Shown: one piece after another, positions 1-29,673 of the stretch
Position numbering within the stretch: position 1 is the first letter of the stretch
How the letters are laid out: each line of letters begins with the position of its first letter
NCBI GenBank assembly: GCA_000999095.1
Contig: LCFP01000007.1
Location: forward strand, 5,013 to 69,012
Direction of reading: 5' to 3'
From: Candidatus Gottesmanbacteria bacterium GW2011_GWA2_43_14
GTDB lineage: Bacteria; Patescibacteriota; Microgenomatia; 2-02-FULL-39-11
Length of the DNA: 64,000 nucleotides
The notes under the pieces: model-generated
Databases searched by the model: none
The model's input: the letters and a program-made list of their open reading frames with translations, nothing else
What the model was told of the DNA's origin: nothing
Made by a program: the position numbers and the translations under genes

Positions 1-1755
1 TCCTTCCGACTGCTGGTCCAGCCTGAGTCAGGCTGGTTGAATTCCACCTGCCGGTATTCATAAAAGATTGATCCTACTTTAGTCCGGCCGACCTTAAGAC
101 CTGCTCCGTCAATTCTGACTTTCCAGCTATTTCCGTCAGCCTCAGGATAAGCATATGTCAATGACCCGCCGATTGTCAGAGTATATTCACGGCTTTCATC
201 CCCGTAGACGAACAAGGTTGGGGAGGAACCGGTTAATCTTAACGGGCAAAAATTAAAATCTTCCCATTCTTCCCGCAGCATTTTTAATTCCCTGACTTCA
301 TCCTGGCTGCCTTTTTCATCAATTACCAAAGAGTCAAATTCAGCTATGACTGCGTTTATCTCAGGCAGCGGCTCAACTGTTGCCGGGATCAGGAACCAGT
401 TGTTGGCGCGTTTTTGGTTCTGATTGTTGATGGTAAATTTTCCCACGTCGCCATAGCCGCTTAAAGTTATGATAGGCGCCAGCTGGCTTTCCGACGGGAC
501 ACATGGTGAAGCATTGGTGACGGTTCCTGCCTGGTCGGGATTAAAAGTGCCCAGTTTCAACGATTCATCATCCAGGGCAGGTGCCTCAGTAACCCCGGCT
601 ACCTCACCGGCAAAAACCTGGCGGTTATTAAGCGCCGGTACAGCCATAATAAAGGTTGTGTTGAATCCGCTTTTAGTCACAGCGTTGCCTTTTAGAACAT
701 ACATCGGCTCTATCATTTTATTGCTTGCCGGATTTTCCAGGTAAGTCAGGATATAATCAGTTACCTCAGCCCGGAGGTTGTCTGCCCTGTTTTCCGGAAA
801 TATCTCCTCCCAGGCGATGTTTTCCGTGTTATCAGGTACAATTATAGACAGGTTGGCCATCCCGGAAGTCATTTGCAGGTAAGCTTCATCGGGATTTATC
901 AGATTTTCCGCTCCATAACTCAATTCCGAATCTATTAATTTAAGATTGGAGGTGATTCTCATACCTTGTCCTCCACCCAGTGCCACGGTGACTGTATTGA
1001 AATCATCAGGTCTCATTCTGCCGTCTTCTCCTGTTGAGGTGTTGACGATTTCCGGCTGTTCCGGTGTCAGGCTGTCAGTCATCCCGGGTTGAAGCTGATT
1101 CAATCTGGTTTCATTGGAAACATTAAGAAGACCTGAAAAATTTAATATCGGCAATCCGGCTTTGACAAAATCGCGATGGCATTCCACAAATATATATCCG
1201 TTTATATCATTTCTGGAGTAGGTGACAGGGCATTCTACTGTTTCATCAATCAAACCTAAGTCAAGCAGGTAGTTTCTGACAAACTCTTTTTCAGAGCCGG
1301 CGCCTCCCGGCAGCGAATAATCACGGTAGGAAACCAGTTCATAATTGCCGCTGTTAGTTTGGAATTTCAGGTAACCTGCGTTTTCAGGATCTTCCGTATT
1401 ATAGAAAATCACCGTATTGCCCTCGCTTTTGTTCTGGTTCAGGTCGAATTTCTGGGCAACAGATGCTAGGTAAGGAATGGAGTAATTTGTTCTGAAATTA
1501 TAGACTTTCACACTGTTAGGAACTGCCGTTCCGCTGTAATTGCCGCTGAGTTCACTGAAAGTCATCACCGGAGATGTCAAACGGGTCTGCTGCCTGCTTG
1601 CTGTGTCCGATTCAGAATCCGTGAATAATTGCTCTGTCATGATGTCGGCGGGGTTTTGTTTCTGTTTAAAGAGGGAGAAAAGGAGAGCGACCAGAAGAAT
1701 TAGTACCAGTGAGAGCAGGATGTATAACTTTTTTTTGGGCAGCTTATCCATCATA
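1..1755 (-). CDS. Large exported or membrane-anchored hypothetical protein. The start is at 1755/1752 (MMDKLPKKKLYILLSLVLILLVALL...) and the 3' end runs past the window edge.
   Basis: Hand translation of the minus strand gives an open frame of more than 580 codons. The N-terminal KKK plus hydrophobic segment is a signal anchor. The ORF track omits it because no stop lies in the window. It abuts the downstream cluster genes. Confidence 0.55.
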
Positions 1756-1815
1756 GAGATTAAAATTACGTAAAATTAATAATTAAATTAAGCGTAAACG
1801 AGGCGGAATAATATG

Positions 1816-4269
1816 TCAATAGTCAGTCAATAAATTCGGGTCAACCGTTATTTGGCTTCCTTCCTTCAGCTTGCCGTCCAGAAGCCTCTTGGCGATATAG
1901 TCTTCCAGAGTTGTTTCAATCGTCCTGCGCATAGCGCGGGCTCCGAATTCCCGGGAATTGCCTGTTGAAGCCAGGTAGTTGACCAGCTCGTCGCTGGGGT
2001 TGACCCGGATGGCTTTTTGGGCAATTCTGGAGTTTAAATTTTCAAGCATCAGTCTGGCTACCTGCCTCAGATGTCCCTGGGACAGAGGCGTAAAAACCAC
2101 AGTCCCGTCAAAACGATTGAGAAATTCAGGGGAAAATATTTTTTCTCTCAAGACGTGATCAACAATTTGATCCTGCAGTTTTTGCGGACTTGCTTCTGCG
2201 GCGACCTGTTCCCGGATATATTCCGATCCGGCATTTGATGTGGCGATGATAATTGTCTGCCGGCAGTCAATTTTTTTGCCGGAGGCATCATGCAGATAAC
2301 CTTCGTCCAGAAGCGTTAAAAAAAGATGCTGGATTTCTTTGGGGGCTTTTTCAATTTCATCGAAAAGAAGCAGGCTGAAGGGGTTAACGCTCAATTTTGT
2401 AGTCAGCTCCCCGGCTTTTTGACCGGCGCTTGAACCTATCAGCCTGGCCATGCCTTCTTCGCCCTGGTACTGGCTCATGTCAAAACGCAGCATTTTATCT
2501 TCCCCTCCGTAATAGACGGAACTTAGGGCTTTAGCCGTTTCCGTCTTGCCGACTCCGGTCGGTCCCAGGAAAAGGAAGGAGCCGATGGGTTTCTCCGAGG
2601 AAGAGACATTCATTCTGGCTCTTCTTAAAGCGGAGGCGATCATCCTGATGGCCATTTGCTGGTTGATTATCCGGCGGTGCAGGTAGTCTTCCAGATTAGC
2701 CAGTTTTTCCTTTTCACCTTCAAGAAGTTTGCCTATGGGAATCTTCAGTTTCTCTGTCAGGTATTTATCGATATCATCGCTGCGGATAAATTTATTACGG
2801 TTAGAGGCGATAATGGCATTCTCCAGCAGTTCTATCGCTTTACCGGGAAAAGGCGTTGCTGTCAGATAACGGTCGGCATCCTCAACGGTTTTTTTAACGG
2901 CCGCAAGCGAAATGACAGTGTTATATCTTCGTTCCAGGACCGGCACAATGGATATTTCCAGTTCCGTGATGACGGTTTTTAAATCAGGGGCCAATAGGAA
3001 AATTTCCTCAAACAGGCCTCCCAGGAGGCTATTTTTTTCGAGGAATTGATGATAATCGTCAGGCGTCGTCAAACCGATTAACCCAATTGAGCTTCTGGCA
3101 AATTTCTCGATGACATCCGTCAGATTTAGCCTGCCTTCGCCTTCGGAGGCATACTTGTCGAAGTCGTCGATAAACAGGATGATATTGCCGGCTTTCTCGG
3201 ATTCCTCATATATTTGCGAAAAAACGGCTTTTATTTCCTGGAGGTTCTTTTTATCCGAGCAAAGTGCGTGCATATCAACTTTCATGATTCTCTTGTGGGA
3301 CAGTTCTTTTTCACTCATGCCAAGGTACAGGTGGCGGGCCAGAGTTTCAACCAGCATATGTCTGGCTATACCGGGAACGCCAATCAGCATGACATTTTTA
3401 TTTTCGCTTTTAAGCAAAGCCCTTTCCATTTTTTTTATTTCCGCATCCCGTCCTAAAAGGAAGGGGAATGGTGTCGGTTCGGCAGTTAAATCATGGGCAT
3501 ATTTATCCAACTCAACTGTATAACCGTACGACCAGTCAATGCCTATCCCCGGCAGGGCGCGTATTCTCTTCTTGTCTTCGAGCAGGGGCCGCAGAGTCAA
3601 TGATTCGAGGCGGCGGTACCAGTTCAGACAGGTGAAGAAATCATCTTTGCTGATTTTATTGGCTGAAATTTCCGGTAAAAAGGAAAGGTTTTCATAAATT
3701 TGATTATAGAGGTTTTCTGCATTATCCGGAGTTGTCATAGGCAAAATGGAGAAAGGAGGCAGTTTGGCGATGATGCTCCCAGGGTCCAGTCCAAGTCTTA
3801 TCAAGCAAAAACGGCCGGTTTGCGACAGGCAGAATTTTTTGAGGTATTGACCGTTTCCCAAGGCTTGCATGATTTCAGCAGTCTCCTCGTTGAAATTTTT
3901 TTTTCTTGAAACGTAAAAAGGCAGGGAAACAAAGGGCAGCAAGAGCCAGCCGATTAAAACCGGTAGGTAAAGAAAAGGCAAAAGCAGCATCATGGTCAGG
4001 CCGGTAAAAATTGCCGTCAGCCGCAGGAAAAAACCCATAAATCTTGACGTCAGATTGAATCCAACGACAGAGGCGTAATTCGACAGCTGGAAACCCCGGC
4101 CTTTAACAGCCCGGATGCGTTTCCAGGGCGCCAACAGGTTGGGCAGATGGTGGGGAATTCCCGAAAAATAGTAGGAAAATAAAACCAGATTGAAGAAATG
4201 GTCCGTGAGGCGGGGCCAAATCCGGGAATAATGCCAGTTGAGAAAGTCTTCCAGATTATTCATTTTCAA
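1816..4269 (-). CDS. Membrane-anchored ClpA/ClpB-like double AAA+ ATPase (817 aa). The first ATPase domain (NBD1) is degenerate and the second (NBD2) is intact.
   Basis: The N-terminal ~270 aa contain several hydrophobic helices (e.g. FFLRLTAIFTGLTMMLLLPFLYLPVLIGWLLLPFVSLPFYV). D1 aligns to ClpB D1, but its Walker A reads GVPGIARH where ClpB has GEPGVGKT, and its Walker B reads ILFIDDFD. D2 is canonical: FLFLGPTGVGKTE, LLFDEIEKA, TSNAGS, and the C-terminal GARAMRRTIE small domain. Confidence 0.8.
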   Translation of the reverse strand: MKMNNLEDFLNWHYSRIWPRLTDHFFNLVLFSYYFSGIPHHLPNLLAPWKRIRAVKGRGFQLSNYASVVGFNLTSRFMGFFLRLTAIFTGLTMMLLLPFLYLPVLIGWLLLPFVSLPFYVSRKKNFNEETAEIMQALGNGQYLKKFCLSQTGRFCLIRLGLDPGSIIAKLPPFSILPMTTPDNAENLYNQIYENLSFLPEISANKISKDDFFTCLNWYRRLESLTLRPLLEDKKRIRALPGIGIDWSYGYTVELDKYAHDLTAEPTPFPFLLGRDAEIKKMERALLKSENKNVMLIGVPGIARHMLVETLARHLYLGMSEKELSHKRIMKVDMHALCSDKKNLQEIKAVFSQIYEESEKAGNIILFIDDFDKYASEGEGRLNLTDVIEKFARSSIGLIGLTTPDDYHQFLEKNSLLGGLFEEIFLLAPDLKTVITELEISIVPVLERRYNTVISLAAVKKTVEDADRYLTATPFPGKAIELLENAIIASNRNKFIRSDDIDKYLTEKLKIPIGKLLEGEKEKLANLEDYLHRRIINQQMAIRMIASALRRARMNVSSSEKPIGSFLFLGPTGVGKTETAKALSSVYYGGEDKMLRFDMSQYQGEEGMARLIGSSAGQKAGELTTKLSVNPFSLLLFDEIEKAPKEIQHLFLTLLDEGYLHDASGKKIDCRQTIIIATSNAGSEYIREQVAAEASPQKLQDQIVDHVLREKIFSPEFLNRFDGTVVFTPLSQGHLRQVARLMLENLNSRIAQKAIRVNPSDELVNYLASTGNSREFGARAMRRTIETTLEDYIAKRLLDGKLKEGSQITVDPNLLTDY

Positions 4270-5189
4270 TAAAAATTACACTTTTCTTTTCTCGGATCGC
4301 AGATGGTTTTTTGTAACCCGGGCACGCGTACCAGATTTGAAATATAGTTAACAAGATTATTGTAACCGATAAGTCCCTTGAAAAAATCTTCTGTCATTTT
4401 GACGAAGGACGTATTGTTTGAGGCAGCATGGGAAAGGACGCATGACAGGTTGAAAACCGGTTCTCCGAAAACGGTTTTGTTGGGGTATTCACAACCGACG
4501 CTTTGCCTCATGCCTGGATTAACCGTCAGACAGCGGTTCAGGCAGAAGCGGTATGTTCCATTATCATTTGAGCGGCATTCAGCATTGTTTTCCATCATAA
4601 AACAATGGGTATATCCCTGAGGACCGGTAAACGTCCCGCTTTCGCAGAGGTCCCGGCAGCCGCCCGGCCCGTTAAGCGGCAAACTGCCGCATAATCCCTG
4701 ACCGCCGCCGATATTGCACCAGCATGAAGGGACTCCGGCTGTATACAGAATGCCGCATCCCCGGGGATTGGTTTTTTTGGTTACCGGTGCCGGCGGAGTT
4801 GGTGTGCGTGTCGCCGGACCGGGTGGCCGGGTCGGGAAAGTACAGGCAAAATCCGGTGACAAATTGCAGGCACCGTTGCGAAGTGCATTGCAGTCCGCTG
4901 TTGCCTGGGGGCTTAAACCGCCGTTGCAGTAATGGTTGATTATTTGCGTGTCTGAACACAAGTTGTGCTTGTAACTGTTGTAGATTGGGCGCAAATCAGT
5001 CCTGTATCGTAGAAGACAATCAACGCATTTGGCAGGAAACTGGGGATTTTGAAAATCAAGGTTACAGTTTTTGTCCGAACCCATAGGAACAGCCGGATAG
5101 GTCGGCAGCGGCGTTTGGGCAGAAGCCTGTTTTGCCGCTAAAATTACGGCTGAGACAAAAATGGAAAAAATAATTTTTATTTTGATCAC
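4266..5189 (-). CDS. Secreted Cys-rich protein (307 aa) with a Pro-rich linker and the conserved C-terminal tag ...VRVPGLQKTICDPRKEKC.
   Basis: It has a Sec signal peptide (MIKIKIIFSIFVSAVILAAKQASAQ), more than 25 Cys, and a PTRPPGPATRTPTPPAP linker. The C-terminal motif is shared with the two upstream paralogs. It overlaps its neighbours by 4 bp. Confidence 0.7.
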   Translation of the reverse strand: MIKIKIIFSIFVSAVILAAKQASAQTPLPTYPAVPMGSDKNCNLDFQNPQFPAKCVDCLLRYRTDLRPIYNSYKHNLCSDTQIINHYCNGGLSPQATADCNALRNGACNLSPDFACTFPTRPPGPATRTPTPPAPVTKKTNPRGCGILYTAGVPSCWCNIGGGQGLCGSLPLNGPGGCRDLCESGTFTGPQGYTHCFMMENNAECRSNDNGTYRFCLNRCLTVNPGMRQSVGCEYPNKTVFGEPVFNLSCVLSHAASNNTSFVKMTEDFFKGLIGYNNLVNYISNLVRVPGLQKTICDPRKEKCNFY

Positions 5190-5191
5190 TC

Positions 5192-6949
5192 TCAGGGAAT
5201 TGCACAGCCGTTAGTGACCTTCGGATCACAGGTGGCTTTTTGCAGTCCGGGTACGCGCTGAATTTGTTCGATTAACAGACTTAATTCAATGGCATCGATG
5301 GTGCCCTGTCGATACTGGTCAATATAGCTGCTGATGACTTCATTGGTTGATTGGCTGACGGAAGCGGTTCCCAGAGGATCAGGAAATTCAGCCGTAATAT
5401 CGACCTTAGCCGGCGGATTTACCTGGCAGACACTGGCCTGGCAGGAAGCCATATAATCAATATTTTCTATGACGACTCCCGCAGGTCCGTAAGCTTTGAC
5501 ATAGACGTCATATTTCCTGTCCGGAAAAAGATTGTTAAAGCGGTAGGGGAAAACTACCCCGCTTTGGATGCCTGCTTTGGGAATTTCTATTTTCCGTAAA
5601 TAGTTATCTCTGACATCATTGATCCAGACATAAACAGAATCAAATTGCGCTTTACTGGTAAAGTTCAGGATGACTTCCCCCGAGATTTCGGAATTAGGAG
5701 GCGTGCCGTAGCGGCACTCATACAAAATGTCAAAAGTATTTGGTGGGGAATAAGGCGAGGTGACATCGACACAGGCCTGGCTGTCATATCTCCAGTATGA
5801 GGCTATCTGGCGGTTGATTGGCTGTCCGGCTACCCGGAAACAGTGGCCGCTTCCGTCGGTTGAGCATTGTCCCTGGGGGTTGATACCGTCGACCGAAAAA
5901 GCCCTTTGGTCAGGATTTAAATTATTGCAGCTGACGTCCGTAAAATAAGAGATGTAGTTGGTATGGTTGCAGATTTCACCGTCGGGAGAATACCAGGCAG
6001 GTTTGGGAAGTGCAATCGGTGTTGCGCCGGGCGGAGGGGTAGAGCTTGGGGTTGGAGTATTTGCGGGTCTGTCAATGGTAAAGCTGACAACACAGGCCGG
6101 CTGCGGCGATGAGAATCCGGTATCATCAAGAATAAAATAACCGTTGACCTGGACTTTTAGAGGAAGTTTGTTCCCCCAGAGTTCATCGGGACGGTTCAGG
6201 TCATCGTAATAAACGGTAAATGTATGGCTGGTTGAGCCTGATTTAGGCACGATGACATTATAATGCTGGCCGCCGAAAATAATGGGTTTGGGGTTGCCGG
6301 GACCGTAGAGATTGTCCCTGTTATAAAAGAAAAGCTGGTAGTTGGTGATGGCGGTCCCTGCCGGGGGCAGACCGCTGATAGTGATTTGCAGGGATTGGCT
6401 GGGACTGAGGATGCCGCCTGAGATTGATGAACTCTGACAGACCGCGGGGCGGTATTCTTCCGTTTCTAAAAAACAGGCACTGTTGGTAGGCGACCAGCTG
6501 CCGCTGTCCTGGGCCATATAAGGCACGATTTGCACTCTTTTCAGTTTGCTTCCTAGAGGCAGATTCTGCTTCAGGTCGGTAATAAAAAGCTCAGCCGCGG
6601 AAACGGTTCTGGTACCCGTAGTTCTTTGGGTAGTGGTGGGATCTTTAAATATCAGCGGATACTGTCCGGCCGGACAATCAGTCGTCGGGATAACCACATC
6701 TCCGCCGACATTGGTACAGACCACCTGGCCGAGCGTCGGATCACCGGGTTCTTTAAAATCAAGATTACGGATCAGAAAATAAAAATTATTGACAGGGATG
6801 TCTGATGTGGACTTAAATGTTACGGTTTCATTGACTTTGAGGACAGCTTTGTCGATAGTTGCTCCCGTACAGGATTGGGCATATGTTTTTCCGGGCAAAA
6901 GATACAGAAAGAAGATACCCAGAAAAAGAACTGATAATATAGTTTTCAT
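5192..6949 (-). CDS. Secreted large protein (585 aa), paralog of the C-terminal part of the 7447-9750 product, ending ...IQRVPGLQKATCDPKVTNGCAIP.
   Basis: The signal peptide is MKTILSVLFLGIFFLYLLPGKTYAQ. Two internal regions align to the 767-aa neighbour (IDKAVLKVNETVTF.../IDKATIGPGESFTV... and ...YDVYVKAYGPAG.../...YELYVKAYDRQG...). A PTPSSTPPPGATP linker is present. Confidence 0.7.
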   Translation of the reverse strand: MKTILSVLFLGIFFLYLLPGKTYAQSCTGATIDKAVLKVNETVTFKSTSDIPVNNFYFLIRNLDFKEPGDPTLGQVVCTNVGGDVVIPTTDCPAGQYPLIFKDPTTTQRTTGTRTVSAAELFITDLKQNLPLGSKLKRVQIVPYMAQDSGSWSPTNSACFLETEEYRPAVCQSSSISGGILSPSQSLQITISGLPPAGTAITNYQLFFYNRDNLYGPGNPKPIIFGGQHYNVIVPKSGSTSHTFTVYYDDLNRPDELWGNKLPLKVQVNGYFILDDTGFSSPQPACVVSFTIDRPANTPTPSSTPPPGATPIALPKPAWYSPDGEICNHTNYISYFTDVSCNNLNPDQRAFSVDGINPQGQCSTDGSGHCFRVAGQPINRQIASYWRYDSQACVDVTSPYSPPNTFDILYECRYGTPPNSEISGEVILNFTSKAQFDSVYVWINDVRDNYLRKIEIPKAGIQSGVVFPYRFNNLFPDRKYDVYVKAYGPAGVVIENIDYMASCQASVCQVNPPAKVDITAEFPDPLGTASVSQSTNEVISSYIDQYRQGTIDAIELSLLIEQIQRVPGLQKATCDPKVTNGCAIP

Positions 6950-6952
6950 ATA

Positions 6953-7450
6953 TTATGGACTGATATCAATTTTGATTTCATGATTGCCGCTGATGAGATT
7001 TTTGCCCTGGGACATCAGCCGGCTTTGCTTTGAATCAAGAGAGATTATGGTAGGTCCGGTATTTTTTTTGGTGATAAAGCGGATAGTCACTGCAGGATTT
7101 TTTTCAGCCGCAAGTGCCGTTAAATGGAAAAGCCCCCGTATTCTTTCGGTTTTCACATCTCCCCAGAGGGACGGACTAGGGTCTACCTTTTCAACATCCA
7201 GATACTTAGGATCATAGGCAAGCCACAAATCAATCTCCTGTATCGGCTTCCGGCTTTCAAATGAGATACTCATTGGAAAAGTGGATTGAGTTTTGACTAT
7301 TTTTGCCGGTGTTTCTATCTTAATTTTTACTCCTATTGGAAGGATCAGCCGGATCGCGGCCAGGAATATAAAGACAGCCACGGCTGCCGTGAGATAGTAA
7401 ATGCGCCGGTTGTTTTTTTTATGGCGGATATTCCGGTTCTTTTTTTTCAT
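6953..7450 (-). CDS. Membrane-anchored cohesin-like domain protein (165 aa).
   Basis: A basic N-terminus is followed by one TM segment (YYLTAAVAVFIFLAAIRLIL). The extracytoplasmic domain carries an AYDPKYLDVEKV motif resembling the cohesin YDP-x-xL-x-V signature. It is a paralog of 10024-10575. Confidence 0.55.
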   Translation of the reverse strand: MKKKNRNIRHKKNNRRIYYLTAAVAVFIFLAAIRLILPIGVKIKIETPAKIVKTQSTFPMSISFESRKPIQEIDLWLAYDPKYLDVEKVDPSPSLWGDVKTERIRGLFHLTALAAEKNPAVTIRFITKKNTGPTIISLDSKQSRLMSQGKNLISGNHEIKIDISP

Positions 7451-9985
7451 GGGAGGTCACATCCTCCGGGAATTTTGGGATCACAAGTGGCTTTCTGCAG
7501 GCCCGGCACTCTTGTTATGCGGTGGATGAAGCGCGAAATTTCCAACGGGTCTGCCTGGTTATTGATCCATCTGTTGATCATGTCGTTAAAACGCTGGTTA
7601 ATTTGAGCGGGAGAGGCGTCAACCAGAGGATCGGGAAAAACCAATTTGAAATTGATGACCCCGTCAGGCATGCTTTGGCAGCTGTAACTGCCGCAGGAAC
7701 CTTCATTTATGACGCCGATATAATCAATGGCAGTACCCTGTCGGTCATAAGCTTTGACATAGAGCTCATACGTCTTGTCGTAGAAGAGGGGGGAAAAATT
7801 AAATCGGAATTTGGAATTGTTTTTAACATCTTCAGCTTTTTGTTCATGGAATGTCAGGTAGTTTTCGGCAGAGATGTCATGGAGGTAGACGATAATATTG
7901 CGGAACGGTTTGGCTCCCTCAAAGCTGACGCTGACTTCTCCCGTTATCCTGCCTTTGGGTTCGCTGGTGAAAGAACAGGTGAATAAGCGGTCAAAAATCG
8001 TAGCAGGAATGTCATCCCTGTCTGTAATCGGGGTGCAATCTTCAGAGCCCGAACGTATCAGATATTTCGGCGTGATTGCTTCATTGACGATGACACCGCC
8101 GGCTTTGTAGCAAAAACCTGTGCCGTCTTCATTGCAGCCGGTTTCTTCTTCACGATCGGATAAAGTGTCGCCTGACAGGTATCCTACCGGACTCAGGCAA
8201 AGTGAATCGTTATAGAGTTTGATAAAGTTCTTGTCTGTGCATTTTAGTCCGTCGGGAGCATACCATTCCAATGGATCGTTCGGATTGCCGACGCAGGTGG
8301 TTCCGTTCCAGCAGGCATTAGGGCCGCAATCACAGCCTGAGGTTAGAGCTTGGGTGCAGTTAATTTTAGGGTCTCCCGCCAGTTCACAACTGTCCACACA
8401 ACCGTTGGGGAAGACTTCCCATTTAAATCCCTGGTTTTCGCAGGCAAATTTTTCCGCATCGCTGCAGACAAGCTGGCATTCATTCTCGATGCATTTCGTT
8501 GAGCAATTTCCTCCAATTCCCGAACAAAAATCAGGGTCTTCGCACTGACCGGCAAGAAACTCTTTATTTTCGACGGTGCATTTACCGGTTTCTTTATCCA
8601 GGGCGCAGCCGCAGTCGAAATCAGTCTGGCAGAACAATTTTTCGGAAGCGGGGGTAGGTGTAATGGTGATATCGGGTTCGGGTGTGGGAACATCATCAGT
8701 TACCGATGACGAAACATGTCCGACACAGCCGATTTCAGCTACGGACAGCTGGCCGCCCGGACTCTGGAAAAAATAAGCATTGATCTGAATTTTTTGAACC
8801 GGCAAATTGCCGTTTCTGGCGTCAAGTTTGCCGAATATTTCCTCGTAGGAAATTGTTCTGCTGCCTGTTGTCCGCATCCCGGCCCAGTCAGGATCCTCGA
8901 ATATCAAATGGTGAGTGCCGGTAGGACAGTTGCCGACGATGCCGGTTACATCGCCGCCCTCGGCCACGCAGACCGATTTGGGATTTCCCGGACCGAAGAG
9001 ATTGTCCATGTTATAGAATTGGTACCAAAAACGGTTGATGGGAGTTTTGGAAAATGAGGTTACCGTAAAAGATTCTCCCGGACCGATGGTAGCCTTGTCT
9101 ATGGAGATACCCTGGCAGAGGTTTGGCCTGTCGGGACCGAGTGCCGATACAGGGGTTGCCGATGGTGCCGGTACTCCCGGATCGCCCGGGTCTTTACCCT
9201 GGCATACACAAATCGGCAAACCGTCCGATCCTTCGCCATCGGCCACACAAGTCCCGCCCGTGCCGCAGCTGGTTCCCTCGTCGTGGTTTTTGCAGTTGTT
9301 GTTCGATTCGGCTGAACAGGAGGTGCCTCCGCCCGGATAGCCGGGATCGCCTGGATCTCCGGGACCGCCGGGACCGCCGGGGTCACCCGGACCTGTAGAA
9401 GGCGCAGTGCAATTGCATATCGGATTCCCGCTGGTATCATTTGATCCGGTTATATTGCAGTTTTTGTCCGTAGCGCAGGCAAAGCCGAGATTTTTGCTTT
9501 TACAGACAGTTTCCGATGAAAGTGAAGAGCATTTCTGTTCACAGCAGGTGGATTGGATTCCGCAGTCTTTGACTCCTACGCTGTAATAGTTAGTATCGCA
9601 GGGAAGTTCCGCCAAAGGTGAACAGTATCCCTGGCAAAGCGGAGCTGTTGGGCAATTATCAGCAATATCGCCGCATTTTAAAATAGAGCCTACATAGCCG
9701 CATTTTCCAGGACAGTTTAAATCGGTTGTGCATGTCTGACCGGCGGACAATATCGCCGCATTTTAAAATAGAGCCTACATAGCCGCATTTTCCAGGACAG
9801 TTTAAATCGGTTGTGCATGTCTGACCGGCGGATGTACAAGAAGTTGAGGTCGCGGCCTGCTTTTGGGGGTTTTGGGGCTCAAGTGCGAGGCGGACAGCGG
9901 CGGCGACACCGACGACCATCGTCACCAGAAGCACCAATTCAATACCGGCAAACCCGGCCTGGCGGAATCTTCTAAATATTTTCAT
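7447..9985 (-). pseudogene. Giant type IV pilin-headed Cys-rich adhesin-like gene, about 830 aa if contiguous. An 85-bp tandem duplication splits it into ORFs 9659-9985 and 7447-9750.
   Basis: The N-terminus MKIFRRFRQAGFAGIELVLLVTMVVGVAAAV is a class III prepilin signal (G|F..E5). The 28-aa segment SAGQTCTTDLNCPGKCGYVGSILKCGDI is encoded twice, by the two repeat copies. The body has EGF-like Cys repeats, a collagen-like GPGDPGGPGGPGDPGDPGYPGGG run, and the C-terminal tag ...ITRVPGLQKATCDPKIPGGCDLP. Confidence 0.6.
9662..9831. repeat. Perfect tandem duplication of 2 x 85 bp (9662-9746 and 9747-9831).
   Basis: I checked base by base that the two 85-bp copies are identical. Because 85 is not a multiple of 3, the duplication shifts the reading frame of the pilin-like gene. 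Confidence 0.9.
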
Positions 9986-10023
9986 TATTTCTGATTTTTT
10001 ACAGTTTCCTAATCAACTGATCC

Positions 10024-10575
10024 CTAAAGAATATTCACGTCCAACTGGTCAATTCGTTTCGGATCGAGAATATTGATGCCGTTGGTGGCCACGATCGTTT
10101 TTGTCCGGTCAAAGTTAATTTCGGTTTTGCCTTTATTTTCGGTGGCCTGGAATACGATTTCAGCTACGGTTTCTTTGCCCTTTGGCAATATAATTTCTTT
10201 GCCGTCAAAGGTGGCCACTCCGGAAACCTTCACATAGCCGCTGCCGCTGACGTTGATAGGGTAATTGGCGAAAAAATTACCGGTTGAAACTGAAGTGACT
10301 TTCAGGTATTTCGGGTCGAATGCCACTACAAAGTCAGCCGCGGCCACTTCGGTTTTACCGGAATCAAGAATCAAGGTAACTTTGAAATCTTCCCCGGCCG
10401 GGATCCGGCTGTTTTCGGCAAGGAGATCCAGTTTGGCTTCCTGTTTGATTTCACCTTCCTTCGGCGCTCTTTTTTGCTGGATGATATAAGCAGCCAGAAG
10501 GCCGATTATAAAAAAAAGTGTAAGGATGAATAATTTGCTGGCAGATTTTCCGGTTGAAACTGGTTTTTCCTCCAT
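10024..10575 (-). CDS. Membrane-anchored cohesin-like domain protein (183 aa), paralog of 6953-7450.
   Basis: It has an N-terminal TM segment (LFILTLFFIIGLLAAYII) and an FVVAFDPKYLKVTSV motif. It is the first gene of the minus-strand cluster. Confidence 0.55.
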   Translation of the reverse strand: MEEKPVSTGKSASKLFILTLFFIIGLLAAYIIQQKRAPKEGEIKQEAKLDLLAENSRIPAGEDFKVTLILDSGKTEVAAADFVVAFDPKYLKVTSVSTGNFFANYPINVSGSGYVKVSGVATFDGKEIILPKGKETVAEIVFQATENKGKTEINFDRTKTIVATNGINILDPKRIDQLDVNIL

Positions 10576-10634
10576 AATTTTAAGTTAGAAGAAAAAGAAG
10601 CGTAAGTCAAGCAATTTTTTGCTATACTGTAAGC

Positions 10635-11207
10635 ATGATTCTCTCTGATAGGGATATAAAGAAGAATTTGATCACAGGCAAAATTAAAATCAGCCCGCCC
10701 CCGGATCTTACTTTGCAGCTGGGATCATGTTCCGTTGATTTAAGGTTGGGCAAAACATTCCGTATTTTCGAACACAGCAAACAGCCTTATATTGATCCGT
10801 TTAACACCAAATATTCAGCGGACGTGACGAAATTAGTGAATGTAATTGATACGGAACCGTTTATCTTGCATCCCGGTGATTTTGTCCTGGCCACGACAAT
10901 TGAGCATTTTGAGCTTTCTGATGATCTGGTGGCCAGGCTGGAAGGCCGTTCGTCTTTGGGACGTTTGGGGATCGTTGTTCATTCGACAGCCTCGATTTTT
11001 GAGCCGGGCTGGCAGGGACGGGTGGTTATGGAATTGGGCAATCTGGGACGGATGCCGGTAGCCCTTTACCCGGGGATGCGTGTCTGTGCCCTGACTTTCG
11101 AAGAATTATCAAGCCCTGCTGACGTGCCGTACCACAAAAAAAAGGGCGCCAAGTATGTCAATCAGAAGATGCCTGATGCTTCCAAAATCTCAGCCGATAA
11201 AAAGTAA
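10635..11207 (+). CDS. dcd: dCTP deaminase.
   Basis: The product is 190 aa with conserved ...ILHPGDFVLATTIE...GRSSLGRLGI...EPGWQGRVVMEL..., matching full-length Dcd. Confidence 0.85.
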   Translation: MILSDRDIKKNLITGKIKISPPPDLTLQLGSCSVDLRLGKTFRIFEHSKQPYIDPFNTKYSADVTKLVNVIDTEPFILHPGDFVLATTIEHFELSDDLVARLEGRSSLGRLGIVVHSTASIFEPGWQGRVVMELGNLGRMPVALYPGMRVCALTFEELSSPADVPYHKKKGAKYVNQKMPDASKISADKK

Positions 11208-11247
11208 TTTTCTTTCGCCCTCCTATACCTTTATAATATATATCCTT

Positions 11248-12441
11248 ATGAATTTAGCTTACCGGATGCGTCCCCGCAATTTTTCGGAATTTGTCGGCCA
11301 GCTTCATCTGGCCGGTCCCGAGGGAATCCTGCGTAAAACGGTAGCCTCCGGCAACCTTTTCTCCATGATTTTCTGGGGACCTCCAGGGAGCGGCAAGACA
11401 ACACTGGCCGGTCTGATTGCCGCAGAATCCGCAGCGGATTTCATACATTTGTCTGCCGTTGAGAGTGGCAAGGACGATTTAAGGAAATCCCTGGAAAAAG
11501 CCAGGCTCAATCAAAATTATGGCAAAAAGACCATTCTTTTCATTGATGAAATCCACCATTGGAACAAAGCCCAGCAGGACGGGCTCTTGCCTTATGTCGA
11601 GTCGGGCTTGTTAATCCTCATCGGTGCCACCACGGAAAACCCCTCTTTTGAGGTAATCAGCCCGCTTCTGTCCCGCTGCCGGGTTTTTGTTTTGAATCAA
11701 TTGGACCGTTCTGATTTGGAAAAAATTATTAAAAGGGCACTAACCGATAAAGATAGGGGTTTGGGCAAAGCCAAGATTTCCCTGGGTGTGGAAGAAAAAA
11801 AATTATTGATCAGTTTATCCGGAGGTGATGCCCGGGTAATGCTGATTGCATTGGAGATAGCCTCTCAGACTTCCGGAAAAATCAGCCGGGAAACGATAGA
11901 GGATGTTTTTCAGAAAAAATCTGCAGGACTATACGATAAGAAAGGCGAAGAACACTACAATATTATTTCCGCCTTTATCAAATCCGTCCGTGGCTCAGAT
12001 CCCGATGCCGCTTTATTTTATTTGGCCAAAATGCTGGAGGGCGGTGAGGATCCCAAGTTTATTGCCAGACGGATGATAATTCTGGCCTCAGAAGATATCG
12101 GACTGGCTGACCGGGGTGCTTTAATCCAGGCCAATGCCGCCTTTGAGGCGGTGACAAAGATCGGTATGCCGGAAGCACAACTGATTTTGGCACACATCGT
12201 TATTTATCTGGCTAAAGCTCCTAAATCCAGGTTGGTACCCAATGCTTTGGGCAGGGCTAAGCAGGCAGTCTATGAATTCCCAGAGGAAACCGTGCCTTTG
12301 CATCTCAGGAATGCCCCGACCAAACTCATGAAGGAATTGGGATACGCCAAAGACTACAAATGGAGCGAAAAGTATGTCGGCCCCCAAAAAGGCAAATCAT
12401 TTTTGCCTGAAAAACTTAAAGGCAGGAAATTCGTGGAATGA
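11248..12441 (+). CDS. rarA: Replication-associated recombination protein A (RarA/MgsA AAA+ ATPase).
   Basis: [53 protein letters not shown] and [14 protein letters not shown] all align to E. coli RarA. The ORF track starts at 11155, which overlaps dcd, so the ATG at 11248 is preferred. Confidence 0.85.
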
Positions 12442-12950
12442 CCACTTTCAAATTTTGTCCCGTCTGCCGGAGTGAATTGCGCTTTGCCGAAAAAGGGAAA
12501 GCCTCATATTGCCGTACATGCGGTTTTCATTATTACCATAACCCGGCTCCGGCCGTTGCCGCTGTTATCGAAAACAAAAAGCGGGAAATACTCCTGGTCG
12601 GGCGGAAATTCGAGCCGCAAAAGAATTTCTGGGATTTGCCCGGAGGTTTTGTCGACAATGATGAAAATTTGGAGGAGGGGATGGTCAGGGAAATCAGGGA
12701 GGAATTGGGAACGGATATTACCGGTATTAAATATATCGGTTCGGTCCCCGACGACTACCTTTATAAAGGTTACAGATACAAAGTTGTCACCGCCTTTTAT
12801 GCCGGCGAACTTGCCGGGAAAATTAAAGTCGCAGATGACGTTTCCTCTTTCGCCTGGTTTGTGGCGGGCAGTCTGCCGTTTCCCCGGATTGCCTTTAAGG
12901 GCACCAAAGCCATCCTGAAAAAATATACGGCCTCCTGGATTTCCCCTTGA
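12438..12950 (+). CDS. NUDIX hydrolase with an N-terminal zinc-ribbon (NudC-like).
   Basis: A CPVC...CRTC ribbon is followed by a Nudix box GGFVDNDENLEEGMVREIREELG. It overlaps rarA by 4 bp (ATGA). Confidence 0.75.
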   Translation: MTTFKFCPVCRSELRFAEKGKASYCRTCGFHYYHNPAPAVAAVIENKKREILLVGRKFEPQKNFWDLPGGFVDNDENLEEGMVREIREELGTDITGIKYIGSVPDDYLYKGYRYKVVTAFYAGELAGKIKVADDVSSFAWFVAGSLPFPRIAFKGTKAILKKYTASWISP

Positions 12951-12990
12951 CTGGGAATGTTAGCGGTAATACTCTTTTAATGAACCTAAT

Positions 12991-13617
12991 ATGGTTAAGC
13001 AAAAAAGCCTGTTTATTGTTTTTGAAGGACTTGAAGGCAGCGGCAAATCAACTCAGGCAGGACTTTTGGCCAGCCGGCTTATGGAAGCCGGTTATGACAT
13101 AAAAGCGACCAGGGAGCCCGGCGGCACCAGGATTGGGGAGCTGATCCGTCAGATTACCCATTCCAGGGACAATGTGGATCTGACAGCTGTTGCAGAAGGT
13201 TATTTAATGGCCGCTTCCCGTGCCCAGCATATCAGGGAGATTATCAGGCCTGCCTTAAGCGGGGGGAAAATAGTCATCTGCGACCGTTTTCTTGATTCAA
13301 GTCTGGCTTATCAGGGATACGGCCGGGAATTGGGGGAGGAGAAAATGGCGGAATTAAATAAATTAGCCCTGGATGGGATCAAACCCGATCTGGTAATTTT
13401 TTTGGACCTACAACCCGATCTCGGTTTCAGCCGCAGGAACGGCAGCGGTAAAATTGACAGGCTTGATTTGCAGCAAAGCGATTTTTACGCCAGGGTATAC
13501 CGGGGATATAAAAAGCTGGCCGAGAAAAACAGGGATAAATACTTTATTGTCGACAGTTCAAAACCGGTTGAGGAAGCGGCCGCAATTATCTGGAAAAAAG
13601 TAAAATCATTGTTATAA
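12991..13617 (+). CDS. tmk: Thymidylate kinase.
   Basis: P-loop FEGLEGSGKST, REPGGT, and a DRF..S lid region. Confidence 0.85.
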   Translation: MVKQKSLFIVFEGLEGSGKSTQAGLLASRLMEAGYDIKATREPGGTRIGELIRQITHSRDNVDLTAVAEGYLMAASRAQHIREIIRPALSGGKIVICDRFLDSSLAYQGYGRELGEEKMAELNKLALDGIKPDLVIFLDLQPDLGFSRRNGSGKIDRLDLQQSDFYARVYRGYKKLAEKNRDKYFIVDSSKPVEEAAAIIWKKVKSLL

Positions 13618-13621
13618 GCTG

Positions 13622-14719
13622 ATGCCCCCAGGAACAAAATGGTTATATCTGTCAGTAATGGCAGTCTGCCTGGTTTTTATACTGGAAATGTTTTTCCGCT
13701 TTCTTTTTTTCAGGACTTCTTTCCTGGATAAAAACTATGTTTTAAGCGACACTTGGTGGAAATTAAACTGGATGCGCTGGCAGGGGAGTGATCCGGATAA
13801 ACCTTTCTTTCCGGCAGGAGAGGCCAACTATCAGCCGGACAGGGAATTAGGTTGGAATTTGAAGGCCAATTTAAAAAATCACCGGACGGGAGAAGACACT
13901 TTACTTTCGACTAATTCCAGGGGGGTAAGAGGCAGCAGGGAATATCCGTTAGAGAGAAGCGGCGACACCGACAGGTTTGTTGTATTGGGAGATTCTTTTA
14001 CCTTCGGTGATGAAGTCTCGGATCAGGAGACCTATTCTGCCTTATTGGAAAACCGGGAGCAAAACAGGGAGGTTGTCAATTTGGGGATAATCGGATATGC
14101 GCATGACCAGATGCTTTTAAAACTGAAGACAGAAGGTGTTGCCTACAAGCCCGATCTGCTGATTTTGGGATTTTTAGGAATGGATATGGAGAGGAATATG
14201 CTTTCTTTCAAAGATTACCTCAAACCGTCATTTGAGTTAAAAGACGGACAGTTAATGCCAAAATACAGCGATATTCCCGGGGAAAAAGTGTTTTTACGGC
14301 GGGAAAAGTTCAAGCCGAAAACATTTGATTTTATTTCATTGATTGGGGGCAGGTTTTTTTCCGGAGATAGGACTTTGGAAACAGACAGGCTTACTGCCGC
14401 TTTGCTTGATGAAATTTTAAAAACCGCCGCAGGCATAAGATCGGATACGCTATTGGTATATCTGCCCGCAGGCCCGGAAATAAGCGGAGACGAGGCTTCT
14501 TTAGGGCAAGATTTTTTCAATCGTTACTGCAGGCAAACTGTTGCCAAAAATCAGTATAATATAAATTGTCTTGATCTGCGCAGCCGTTTCAGGGAAGAAG
14601 CAAAAAAGGGGGTAGTTTTCAGGGGAGGGCAGACAGAAGGCCATTATGACCGGCAGGCGCATGCTCTGGTGGCAGTGGAAATAGATGAATATTTAAAGGG
14701 AAAGGGGGTGTTAAAATGA
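13622..14719 (+). CDS. Membrane-anchored SGNH/GDSL-family hydrolase.
   Basis: An N-terminal TM segment, and FVVLGDSFTFGDEV (GDS block I). Confidence 0.55.
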   Translation: MPPGTKWLYLSVMAVCLVFILEMFFRFLFFRTSFLDKNYVLSDTWWKLNWMRWQGSDPDKPFFPAGEANYQPDRELGWNLKANLKNHRTGEDTLLSTNSRGVRGSREYPLERSGDTDRFVVLGDSFTFGDEVSDQETYSALLENREQNREVVNLGIIGYAHDQMLLKLKTEGVAYKPDLLILGFLGMDMERNMLSFKDYLKPSFELKDGQLMPKYSDIPGEKVFLRREKFKPKTFDFISLIGGRFFSGDRTLETDRLTAALLDEILKTAAGIRSDTLLVYLPAGPEISGDEASLGQDFFNRYCRQTVAKNQYNINCLDLRSRFREEAKKGVVFRGGQTEGHYDRQAHALVAVEIDEYLKGKGVLK

Positions 14720-15270
14720 ACAAATTATTATTGGGCATAATCGGAGTGGTAGTTCTTTTGGGGGCCATGTTTTTCGGGACCTACAATAATCTGGTTACCC
14801 AAACCACCAAAATAGACGGCCAGTGGGCTCAGGTTGAGACTCAGTATCAAAGAAGGTTTGATCTTATTCCCAATCTGGTTGCCTCAACCAAAGGATTTCT
14901 GGATCAGGAACAGGAAGTGTTCGGACAAATTGCCGAGGCCAGGACCAGGTATTCGGGAGCTTCTACTGTCGAAGAAAAAGTGGAATCAGCCAACCAGGTT
15001 GAATCGGCTTTGGGACGGTTGTTGGTGATTGTGGAAAATTATCCTCAGTTGAAATCCAATGAAACAGTTGCCAGGCTTATGGATGAATTGGCCGGCACCG
15101 AAAACCGGATCAGCGTCGAGCGCGGCCGCTTCAATGAAATGGTCAGGGATTATAATGTGAGCGTTAAAAGGATGCCGACAGCCCTCATTGCCGGACTTTT
15201 CGGTTTCCATGAGAGGCCGTATTTCCAAGCCGCCACCGGCGCGGAAACACCGCCGGAGGTTGAGTTATAA
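14716..15270 (+). CDS. lemA: LemA family protein.
   Basis: An N-terminal TM segment followed by a typical LemA core (...FDLIPNLV...RYSG...YPQLKSNE...). Confidence 0.8.
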   Translation: MNKLLLGIIGVVVLLGAMFFGTYNNLVTQTTKIDGQWAQVETQYQRRFDLIPNLVASTKGFLDQEQEVFGQIAEARTRYSGASTVEEKVESANQVESALGRLLVIVENYPQLKSNETVARLMDELAGTENRISVERGRFNEMVRDYNVSVKRMPTALIAGLFGFHERPYFQAATGAETPPEVEL

Positions 15271-15271
15271 A

Positions 15272-16156
15272 ATGTCCCGGTTCTGGGGTGCAATCAGTGC
15301 ATGTTTGTTTTTTCTGCTTTCAGCAGGAATAATTTTTGCGGTCAATTATCCCGATCCGACAGGCTACGTCAATGATTTTGCCGATATTTACGGCAGCGTA
15401 TTTGAAACTGAACTTGAGAAAAGGTTAGATGATTTTGAACAGGCTTCCGGAGTGGAAATTGCCGTGGTCACAGTTGAAAGCCTGGAAGGAGAACCGGTTG
15501 AAAATTATGCCGTAAAACTTTTTGAGAAATGGAAAATCGGCAAGGCCAAAGAAGATAACGGCCTGCTTCTCCTGATTTCCGAAAAAGACAGGGAAGTCAA
15601 GTTTGAAGTGGGTTACGGATTGGAGCCTTATATAACCGACGGCCGGGCAGGTGACATTATCAGAAATGACATGGTCCCTTCATTCAAAACGGAGAAATAC
15701 GAAGAGGGTACGGGAAAAGCAGTGGATCGGTCTATGAAGTACATATCCGACAAGGATATAGCCCCGAAGGAGGAGCCTGCGAAAGATGATGACGGACTGC
15801 CGGTGATCGGTATCATGCTGGGAATTTATTTTCTGGGTACTTATCTGGCCAGTTTCCTCGGCCGGACCAAAGAAATTTGGCCGGGAGGCGCGATCGGCGG
15901 ATTGATAGGAATACTTGCGGGACTTATTATTTCATCCCTGGCAGCGGCGGTTTTTTTCGGCCTTTTCGCCGGTTTGTTCGGACTGTTTCTGGATTTTATC
16001 CTTTCGAAAAATTATAAAGTCCGCAAAAGCAAAGGCCTGCCGACCAATTTCTGGTCTTCAGGCGGAGGGTTCAGGTCTGGCGGGGGAGGCGGCGGTTCTT
16101 TCGGAGGTTTCGGCGGCGGTTCATCCGGCGGCGGAGGTGCTTCCGGCAGGTGGTAA
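15272..16156 (+). CDS. TPM-domain (TLP18.3/YgcG-like) membrane protein with a Gly-rich C-terminal tail.
   Basis: YVNDFADI..., EIAVVTVESLEG and NGLLLLIS are TPM-domain motifs. The LemA-TPM gene pairing is conserved. The preferred start is the ATG at 15272, directly after the lemA stop. Confidence 0.7.
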   Translation: MSRFWGAISACLFFLLSAGIIFAVNYPDPTGYVNDFADIYGSVFETELEKRLDDFEQASGVEIAVVTVESLEGEPVENYAVKLFEKWKIGKAKEDNGLLLLISEKDREVKFEVGYGLEPYITDGRAGDIIRNDMVPSFKTEKYEEGTGKAVDRSMKYISDKDIAPKEEPAKDDDGLPVIGIMLGIYFLGTYLASFLGRTKEIWPGGAIGGLIGILAGLIISSLAAAVFFGLFAGLFGLFLDFILSKNYKVRKSKGLPTNFWSSGGGFRSGGGGGGSFGGFGGGSSGGGGASGRW

Positions 16157-16391
16157 GTAGGCTTTCGGTTCATATAGAATTGGTACGAATATATCGATAT
16201 AAAGAATTTCGATATCCGCTGGAGCACCGGTCAGGGAAATATCAATTCCAGCCGGCGGTCTGCCGGGAAAATCAAAGTGCCATTGATTCTCCACGCTGAA
16301 AATAGCTGTTTCTTTTAAAACCATAGGCGGTATTAAATCAGACAAATATATGCAAAATATAAGAATTCGATGAGATTTTGATATTCCGCTC

Positions 16392-16467
16392 TTGACAAAG
16401 CCGGTACATATCAGTAAAAAATATAAAAGGGAATTGCCCCCCAGAGAATCCGGGGGGGATTTTTTTT
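16392..16467 (+). promoter_or_regulatory. Putative sigma70 promoter and a leader hairpin with an 8-T tract, ending 5 nt upstream of the purA ATG.
   Basis: TTGACA at 16392-16397 and an A/T-rich -10 near 16415-16427. The stem CCCCCC (16437-16442) pairs with GGGGGGG (16452-16458) and is followed by TTTTTTTT (16460-16467). Confidence 0.45.
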
Positions 16468-16472
16468 GGCAG

Positions 16473-18799: not shown

Positions 18800-18819
18800 T
18801 TTTTTATTATTATATATTC

Positions 18820-18860
18820 TTGACATATTTAATGTAAATGTTAAAATTTAATGTAAATGA
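18820..18860 (+). promoter_or_regulatory. Promoter with a direct-repeat operator for the vapBC module.
   Basis: TTGACA at 18820-18825 and TAAAAT at 18842-18847. Direct repeats TTTAATGTAAATG at 18828-18840 and 18848-18860 overlap the promoter. Confidence 0.45.
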
Positions 18861-19108
18861 TTCACTACGTTACCATTACTTCCCAGGGACAAATTACCAT
18901 ACCCGCAAAACTCAGACGCAAATTTAATTTCGGGAAAAATAAAAAAGCGATTGTTTCCTATACTGAAAATGGAATTTTGGTTGAACCGGTAAAGGATATC
19001 TTGGAGTTTGAAGGGATCTTTAAGACTGATAAAAAAATTCCTTTTAAAAAAGCCAGGAAGGCATTCGTCGAGTATTTGGCTAGCAGAAGTTCGAGAATTA
19101 GTAAATGA
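18857..19108 (+). CDS. vapB: AbrB/MazE-type antitoxin (VapB-like).
   Basis: VTITSQGQITIPAKLRRKF is a swapped-hairpin barrel motif. It is coupled to the downstream PIN gene through an ATGA overlap. Confidence 0.7.
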   Translation: MIHYVTITSQGQITIPAKLRRKFNFGKNKKAIVSYTENGILVEPVKDILEFEGIFKTDKKIPFKKARKAFVEYLASRSSRISK

Positions 19109-27365: not shown

Positions 27366-27400
27366 AACCTGGGAGGTAGCGCAGATACGCAACCTAGGGG
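27366..27400 (+). repeat. REP-like palindromic element, copy 1.
   Basis: AACCTGGGAGGTAGCGCAGATACGCAACCTAGGGG, located between the convergent genes tsf and the TraD-like gene. Confidence 0.7.
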
Positions 27401-29604: not shown

Positions 29605-29673
29605 GTGGTTTAAGTATAGATTTTCCCTGTGCAAATTAAAAGTTGTATAATCACGCGAATCCGAAGGTCTTAT

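Follow-up and report, generated by a model that had tools for sequence, protein, structure and literature searches.

A compact array of seven genes, named here G1 to G7, occupies positions 1-10575 of the minus strand in the 64-kb stretch of DNA that we analysed at its full length (the window), which comes from contig UV73_C0007 of the uncultured Candidatus Gottesmanbacteria bacterium GW2011_GWA2_43_14, a Microgenomates member of the Candidate Phyla Radiation (CPR). Judging from the sequences of these genes and their relatives, we tentatively favor, at somewhat less than an even chance, a role of this cluster in the cohesin-mediated, non-cellulosomal display of adhesin-like proteins, with a non-dockerin tag as the cohesin ligand. 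By profile comparison, both small anchors, G1 and G3, are cohesins, while the exported proteins G2, G4, and G5 share the same C-terminal tag. These results bear out the gene descriptions of the original prediction for this locus, namely, the cohesin anchors, the pilin-like G2, the common tag of G2, G4, and G5, a membrane-anchored Clp-type ATPase (TM-Clp) in G6, and an exported G7. The cluster is, however, not a categorically new secretion system, and it is probably not a new secretion machine, as had been proposed.

In the arrangement that we suggest, G1 and G3 would be held in the cytoplasmic membrane by their N-terminal helix, each exposing a single cohesin domain on the outer side. The export of G2, G4, and G5 would rely on their own N-terminal signals, i.e., a Glu-bearing prepilin-like anchor in G2 and Sec-type signal peptides in G4 and G5, and these proteins would fold outside the cell into Cys-rich, Ig/FN3-like ectodomains of the adhesin type. 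Their shared end of about 45 residues, a predicted helix-loop-helix followed by RVPGLQKxxCDPx(4-5)C, the latter probably forming a disulfide loop, may then work as the cohesin ligand and thus as a functional analogue of the dockerin, with no detectable homology to it. The three proteins would thereby be held on the anchors as a putative adhesive surface assembly. G6 probably works on the cytoplasmic or membrane side, for instance by handling the Glu-bearing anchors or the large Cys-rich precursors or by controlling their quality, as a linked accessory that is unlikely to drive secretion, and G7 would be a variable add-on.

Cohesin anchors

G1 matches the Pfam Cohesin family PF00963 with E = 3.4e-10 and 40.7 bits (curated cut-off 24.1), and its family profile also matches the solved cohesins 3kcp, 3ul4, 5lxv, and 1aoh. 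Hydropathy gives G1 one N-terminal hydrophobic helix, and its orthologues, with 35-72% identity, occupy the leading position of the cluster in the related loci L004, L008, L011, L012, L013, L025, L026, and L027. G3 is built in the same way but lacks a Pfam match; it aligned with G1 by BLASTP across the whole domain (24% identity, E = 1e-4), the G1 and G3 families matched each other by hhalign with a probability of 97.4% (E = 9.8e-12), and UniRef names G3 a cohesin-domain protein. The short contig L024 has an orthologue of G3 (33% identity), flanked by a tagged gene and by a homologue of G4.

The C-terminal tag and its cargo

The tag is a module of about 45 residues found at the C-terminus of G2, G4, and G5 and nowhere else in the window. 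Across the orthologues, its pattern is an amphipathic helix, the motif G-x-[IV]-x-[AP]-[LI]-x-[MIV]-S-x-F-[IV], and then R-V-P-G-L-Q-K-x-x-C-D-P-x(4-5)-C. It is under purifying selection rather than the product of recent copying, because G2 and G4 agree in every one of the 12 core residues and yet use different codons for seven of them. It is also modular, being carried by unrelated ectodomains: G2 and G4 have two domain types in common besides the C-terminus, and that of G5 is unrelated to them. The tag is kept in orthologues as distant as those of L025, L026, and L027. When 241 million metagenome records were scanned with a narrow alignment of the tag core, six loci were returned, all of them belonging to this cluster, and therefore, the tag marks two or three cohesin-adjacent proteins and not a genome-wide set of cargo.

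The tag is a single helix-loop-helix with no Ca ligands; Dockerin_1 was found neither in G2, G4, and G5 (Pfam, E <= 0.1) nor in 14 isolated tags (Pfam, E <= 10), hhalign with four dockerins placed the tag on the expected F-hand helix, yet at a probability of just 0.8%, and the tag profile against the PDB gave only noise (E > 0.4). The Pfam, hhalign, and PDB-profile results rule out the tag as a dockerin homologue, and what we infer is an analogy. With the known C-terminal sorting signals (LPXTG/sortase, PEP-CTERM/exosortase, GlyGly-CTERM, and the C-terminal domain of the type IX secretion system), the tag shares that it is a short common motif at the extreme C-terminus of co-encoded exported proteins. 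In contrast to them, it ends, for example, in CDPKVTNGCAIP, with neither a hydrophobic segment nor a basic tail, the proteins stopping 8-10 residues past the CDP, and no sortase or exosortase family was matched by the cluster proteins in Pfam or NCBIfam. A sorting signal of the sortase or exosortase type was thus ruled out by the absence of a hydrophobic tail after the motif, and the type IX domain is a beta-sandwich of about 80 residues, in contrast to the helical tag of about 45.

As for the tagged proteins themselves, each of them has its own N-terminal export signal or anchor, with Sec-type signal peptides in G4 and G5, and they are rich in Cys, with 56 residues in G2 and 22 in G5. The AlphaFold2 model of G4 (alignment of 11 sequences, pLDDT 69) has three beta-sandwiches (residues 25-165, 170-295, 417-525), followed by a helix-loop-helix that spans 532-562, and Foldseek matched it only with generic Ig/FN3/macroglobulin arrays, of the kind found in adhesins, at a TM-score of about 0.15. 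These signal peptides and anchors, the high Cys content, and the string of beta-sandwiches point to an extracellular, adhesin-like cargo and speak for docking. No glycoside hydrolase (GH) or carbohydrate-binding module (CBM) was found in the seven proteins with Pfam and NCBIfam. G4 had no match in Pfam or NCBIfam, nor did G5 or G7 in Pfam, NCBIfam, or the PDB by sequence, and no mundane annotation surfaced for G2, G4, G5, or G7.

Conservation across relatives and the docking reading

Six of the seven genes are found again in two other Gottesmanbacteria species, the RIFCSPHIGHO2 40_15 group (L002-L005, L009, L020) and RIFCSPLOWO2_01_FULL_42_22 (L008, L021, L022), which share the order dcd(-), cohesin, pilin-like tagged protein, tagged protein of about 590 residues, tagged protein of about 310 residues, and TM-Clp. 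The orthologues of G4 have 48-52% identity, and those of G5 have 56-70% in L004, L008, and L023. G3 is present in neither species (L004, L008), and G7 is present only in the first one, its orthologue (45% identity) being confined to the L004/L009/L020 lineage; it was not found after TM-Clp in L022, L010, L011, L012, or L026. In L022, the closest relative, a Zn-finger, transposase-like gene of 344 aa (14548-15582, minus strand) lies 1 kb after TM-Clp, at the place expected for G7, and it may explain the loss of the latter.

A core of three genes, i.e., a cohesin anchor, a Glu-anchored tagged protein, and TM-Clp, is found in at least eight lineages, so the synteny across related genomes on which the original prediction depended does exist, while G3, G4, G5, and G7 are variable and missing in many relatives. 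In its smaller form, the cluster starts with the cohesin anchor, continues with large proteins (one or two) anchored by a QKGE(I/L)A start and carrying a recognizable tag, and closes with TM-Clp, at TM-Clp identities of 37% (L025), 48% (L026), 43% (L027), 45% (L011/L013), and 47% (L012). In this cohesin clade, TM-Clp is always co-oriented with and directly downstream of the tagged proteins.

Part of this synteny is background collinearity, because the housekeeping gene dcd adjoins the cluster as consistently as TM-Clp does in L004, L008, L010, L011, L013, L025, and L027; the downstream genes for a 276-aa protein, a 2-Hacid_dh protein, and an aminotransferase are also collinear. Nevertheless, plain collinearity cannot fully account for the three-gene core, since in L012, the core is kept with different flanks on both sides.

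One argument for docking is that cohesin and tag come and go together. Both are present in the window, L004, L008, L025, L026, L027, L011/L013, and L012, and both are absent in L010, L015, L016, L018, and L028, with L010 having lost the two while keeping dcd, the QKGE-anchored protein, and TM-Clp. A second argument comes from another CPR organism (P0007), in which the homologous passenger domain is joined to a canonical Dockerin_1. Right after TM-Clp, L011 encodes three secreted proteins of 543, 887, and 465 aa (11632-19270) with canonical C-terminal dockerins (GDFNCDNLINESDLN...), and thus, cohesin-dockerin display is in use in this group; the metagenome-assembled genome of L011 is labeled "uncultured Gammaproteobacteria", and its locus is clearly of the Microgenomates type. 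The claim of anchors and cargo with a common tag, as the original prediction put it, is supported by the two cohesin anchors, the purifying selection on the tag, and the co-occurrence of both.

The cluster works like a minimal form of cohesin-dockerin display, with likenesses to the classical form and differences from it. Alike are the cell-anchored cohesin module of G1 and G3, the several secreted proteins with one short C-terminal module, and the use of canonical dockerins by relatives of the same group (P0007, L011). Different are the tag, which lacks the duplicated Ca-binding F-hand of about 22 residues (PF00404) and has instead a Cys-x(6-8)-Cys loop at its end, and its confinement to two or three proteins encoded beside the cohesin. 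Unlike cellulosomes, the cluster has single-cohesin anchors on an N-terminal membrane helix and not multi-cohesin scaffoldins with S-layer homology or sortase anchoring, and its cargo has neither GH nor CBM domains, so that cohesin is the only cellulosomal feature present.

Several points weigh against docking. No dockerin model detects the tag, with its missing duplicated Ca-binding loops; the confidence of the tag region in the G4 model is only about 50-76; phylogeny is a confounder for the co-occurrence of cohesin and tag, with few independent lineages; without cleavage of its N-terminal anchor, G2 would have a tether at either end; and docking alone gives no reason for the lasting adjacency of TM-Clp. 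It could be, then, that the neighbors are lineage-specific exported proteins of the adhesin or S-layer type that do not dock at all, with a housekeeping TM-Clp present through collinearity, a possibility that we consider unlikely but the most serious of the alternatives. The shared tag would in that case serve folding, disulfide-linked oligomerization, or wall attachment, with the cohesins binding something else. The syntenic dcd and the collinear downstream genes are consistent with this, as are the TM-Clp homologues in unrelated contexts and the lack of a dockerin signature in the tag, whose conserved Cys pair could form intermolecular disulfides. It fits poorly, however, with the survival of the three-gene core between changed flanks in L012, its persistence down to 37% TM-Clp identity in L025, the joint loss of cohesin and tag from an otherwise kept neighborhood in L010, and the finding of the tag only beside cohesins in the metagenome scan.

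The TM-Clp ATPase

G6 consists of a membrane module (residues 1-125, with a hydrophobic block at 77-121), a Clp_N-like helical bundle at about 126-224, the two ATPase domains D1 and D2, and ClpB_D2-small; Pfam detects AAA_2 (E = 2.6e-46), ClpB_D2-small (E = 5.7e-20), and AAA_lid_9 in D1. Its scores stay far below every Clp equivalog cut-off of NCBIfam, among them those of ClpB (the best score, 396 bits vs. 1232), ClpA (340 vs. 993), and ClpV1 (311 vs. 885), and there are no type VI secretion genes in the window. The TM-Clp family was aligned with four canonical ClpB/ClpC sequences, which keep the pore-loop and Walker motifs. Like the Hsp100/Clp proteins (ClpB, ClpC, ClpA, ClpV, PfHSP101), G6 has two AAA+ rings, ClpB_D2-small, and an intact D2, with Walker A GPTGVGKTE, Walker B LFDEIEKA, and the sensor motifs. 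Unlike them, it has an N-terminal membrane module, and its D1 is degenerate, reading GVPGIARH at Walker A and IDDFD at Walker B, the family having GxPGxxRH in place of GxxGxGKT. The aromatic pore loops are also missing, since there is no K(Y/F)R in the D1 of the family (CSDKKNLQEIK in G6), and a deletion of 4-5 residues removes GYVG from D2 (SSAG----QKAGE in G6). The M-domain columns are all gaps, and neither an (I/L/V)GF ClpP-docking loop nor a Pfam-detectable Clp_N was found in the family. Hydropathy gives a single block of 45 hydrophobic residues with basic residues on either side, which is predicted to be a hairpin with a tiny external loop, with all other parts in the cytoplasm; a nearly invariant Arg (R83) lies at the edge of this hairpin.

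A HMMER search of 1.84 billion representatives recovered 346 clusters (50% identity) with the N-terminal region of G6. Most of them are TM-Clps of about 800-830 aa, and many are free-standing membrane proteins of 120-135 aa that match residues 8-120 only and belong to no Pfam family. The membrane module has the motif WHY...PW(K/R)R...FN..SR..G...R followed by the hydrophobic hairpin, and it is free-standing in P0151, P0165, P0177, P0180, P0192, and P0204; in L028, a module gene of 123 aa (7637-8008) overlaps the start of the Clp gene by 8 bp in a split-gene arrangement. A Parcubacteria member of the TM-Clp family is P0054. Full-length members at a greater distance (36-38% identity) have FolC/PGK/GAPDH (L015, L016) or Memo-AMMECR1/PolX (L018, L019) as neighbors, and neither cohesin nor tag occurs within 8 kb of them. 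Given these unrelated contexts, TM-Clp is of general occurrence in the CPR, and a single clade has retained it beside the cohesin cluster; its CPR-wide family consists of Hsp100-like ATPases that are tethered to the membrane and probably non-threading.

Some neighbors of the distant members are worth recording. Some 350 nt downstream of TM-Clp, L015 has a gene for a canonical type IV pilin (KKKPG|FSLIEVMVVV, about 10800-11383) on the same strand, with two more N_methyl pilins 4.6 kb further on (15069-16279), and in L016, a pilin-like gene of 647 aa (10554-12497) is convergent with TM-Clp. As CPR genomes carry many pilin genes, this proximity could be due to chance. In L018, a bAvd and reverse-transcriptase pair (627-2025), the signature of a diversity-generating retroelement, is found about 1.7 kb upstream of TM-Clp.

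In the original prediction, a membrane-anchored Clp would power the export of the pilin-like subunit and the tagged cargo or their assembly on the anchors, and G7 would be one of the structural components. We regard this as quite improbable. It would agree with the invariant place of TM-Clp as the last gene of the core in at least eight lineages, with its 4-bp overlap with the tagged gene in the window, with the nearly invariant R83 and the Glu that the partner proteins always have at the start of the anchor helix, with the canonical pilin gene after TM-Clp in the distant L015, and with the structural matches of the G6 N-domain, among them PfHSP101, which is the Clp ATPase that belongs to PTEX, the export machine of malaria parasites. 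Yet the cargo proteins have Sec-type signals of their own, fold outside the cell, and carry the tag at their C-terminus, the predicted location of the ATPase domains is the cytoplasm, the tiny loop alone being external, the threading aromatics are absent from both pore loops with a degenerate D1 Walker A, and the family is broad and occurs without cohesin or tag, i.e., it is not dedicated to this cluster. Moreover, no channel-forming component is present, and four of the seven genes (G3, G4, G5, G7) are dispensable in relatives; therefore, an ATPase energizing a dedicated secretion or assembly apparatus finds no support.

On the other hand, the position of TM-Clp after the Glu-anchored proteins and the pilin gene of L015 remain unexplained by docking, and this leaves room for a functional link of the ATPase. 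It may be that the core is a pilus-independent display module in which a non-threading Clp extracts, releases, or checks the Glu-bearing anchors through its Arg-bearing membrane module, with the cohesin capturing the tag afterwards, which we take as rather improbable for the time being.

The N-terminus of G2 and type IV pili

Modular type IV pilins with grafted adhesin modules have reportedly been described for Streptococcus sanguinis, and G2 resembles them in having a short positive leader, a Gly, a hydrophobic helix with a conserved Glu, and large extracellular modules. The cluster could accordingly be a type IV pilus accessory cluster, with G2 as a modular (minor) pilin bearing adhesin modules, the pilus machinery encoded elsewhere, and the other proteins associated with the pilus, which is a weak reading and the least probable of those considered here. 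In its favor, the surface appendages known from CPR bacteria are mainly type IV pili, the N-terminus of G2 (RQAG|FAGIELVLLV) fits G|F-x-x-x-E by eye, such starts are common to G2 and its close orthologues (GFAGIE, GLAVIE, GFAALE), and there is a weak match with the N-terminal model of the GspH pseudopilin at E = 0.074. In opposition to this, the prepilin cleavage/methylation model (TIGR02532/PF07963) does not match G2, and NCBIfam found no TIGR02532 in eight N-termini. Furthermore, the proteins at the G2 position of L010, L011, L012, L013, L025, L026, and L027 start with QKGE(I/L)A at the head of the anchor helix, with the Glu at +1 and not +5, which is non-canonical compared with G|FxxxE and has no match among the profile models; these proteins often have an NPQ about 10 residues past the anchor helix. 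None of PilB/GspE, PilC/GspF, PilD, PilM, PilN, and PilO was found by Pfam in the about 45 open reading frames of the window, to which this search was limited, and G4 and G5 are tagged yet have ordinary signal peptides.

Gene array and the duplication in G2

The coordinates of the cluster are given in Table 1. The successive spacings from G1 to G7 are 38, -4, 3, 2, -4, and 61 nt according to the open reading frames and their translations, which is ordinary operon packing; the co-directional, tight array of the original prediction stands, with the correction that one gap is of 61 bp and not under 40 bp. A scan for promoters and terminators gave nothing above the shuffled expectation and was uninformative on operon boundaries, and Rfam matched no RNA family in the window. 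PADLOC, which covers known anti-phage defense, returned only generic AAA+ matches to D2 of G6 (DolB, PDC-M37B) and none for the other six proteins, and a defense system was ruled out on this result.

Table 1. Positions of the cluster genes, their C-terminal tags, and the repeat in G2
Feature	Positions	Strand	Description
G1	10024-10575	-	183 aa; KKS97571; transmembrane anchor aa 9-35 and single cohesin aa 55-172
G2	7447-9985	-	817 aa in the intact form; Cys-rich; prepilin-like anchor, Ig-like domains, C-terminal tag
G3	6953-7450	-	165 aa; KKS97568; membrane anchor aa 15-46 and divergent cohesin
G4	5192-6949	-	585 aa; signal peptide, three beta-sandwich domains, C-terminal tag
G5	4266-5189	-	307 aa; signal peptide, 22 Cys, C-terminal tag
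G6	1816-4269	-	817 aa; membrane-anchored Hsp100/Clp-type ATPase
G7	1-1754	-	N-terminal anchor, fold without assignment; cut by the window edge, first 584 aa inside
Tag of G2	7450-7584	-	last ~45 aa, ending PLEISRFIHRITRVPGLQKATCDPKIPGGCDLP
Tag of G4	5195-5329	-	ending IDAIELSLLIEQIQRVPGLQKATCDPKVTNGCAIP
Tag of G5	4269-4403	-	ending NNLVNYISNLVRVPGLQKTICDPRKEKCNFY
Tandem duplication	9663-9832		perfect 2 x 85 nt (9663-9747 = 9748-9832); repeat search, 100% identity

The 85-nt tandem duplication shifts the frame of G2 and splits it in the window into open reading frames of 108 and 767 aa. The GenBank record contains the duplication and annotates two G2 fragments, KKS97570 (108 aa) and KKS97569 (722 aa). 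In an independent ENA assembly (contig k141_1507503, our L001), the duplication is absent and G2 is a single protein of 817 aa, the rest being 100% identical over 14.3 kb; removal of one repeat copy in silico restores an open G2 frame of 2454 nt for the same 817-aa protein as encoded on k141_1507503. G2 is treated here as one gene, and the duplication is likely an assembly artefact or a variant of the population or strain. On this otherwise identical contig, the full length of G7 is 684 aa.

Other genes of the window

Outside the cluster, two adenylosuccinate synthetase and two IMPDH-family genes (16392-17717, plus; 19516-20949, minus; 17714-18799, plus; 23718-25262, plus) lie within 9 kb, one of the IMPDH-family genes with CBS domains and the other without; these pairs are duplicated purine-salvage genes in a small genome. 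A TrwB/VirD4-like coupling protein of 767 aa (TrwB_AAD_bind, TraG-D_C; 27394-29697, minus) is encoded among housekeeping genes and adjoins an open reading frame of 611 aa that belongs to no family (29629-31464, plus). Further on, there is a protein of 549 aa that matches DUF6909 from end to end (E = 1.7e-178; 32730-34379, minus) and a protein with an IS200-like Y1 transposase domain (62044-62715, minus).

Significance

CPR bacteria, or Patescibacteria, live attached to other cells, and to our knowledge, almost nothing is known of their surface proteins beyond type IV pili; we found no literature on cohesins or on this cluster in Gottesmanbacteria, Microgenomates, or CPR bacteria generally. If the tag is indeed a cohesin ligand, cohesin display would extend to a minimal, non-cellulosomal, dockerin-less form in the CPR, and G2, G4, and G5 would become concrete candidate adhesins. 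TM-Clp is an uncharacterized, CPR-wide ATPase, and its fixed place behind pilin-like, Glu-anchored proteins in one clade provides a lead to its function. Should the handling of Glu-bearing anchors by this ATPase turn out to be true, improbable as we now consider it, it would amount to a pilus-independent loading of large adhesins and to the first function for this CPR-wide orphan ATPase family.

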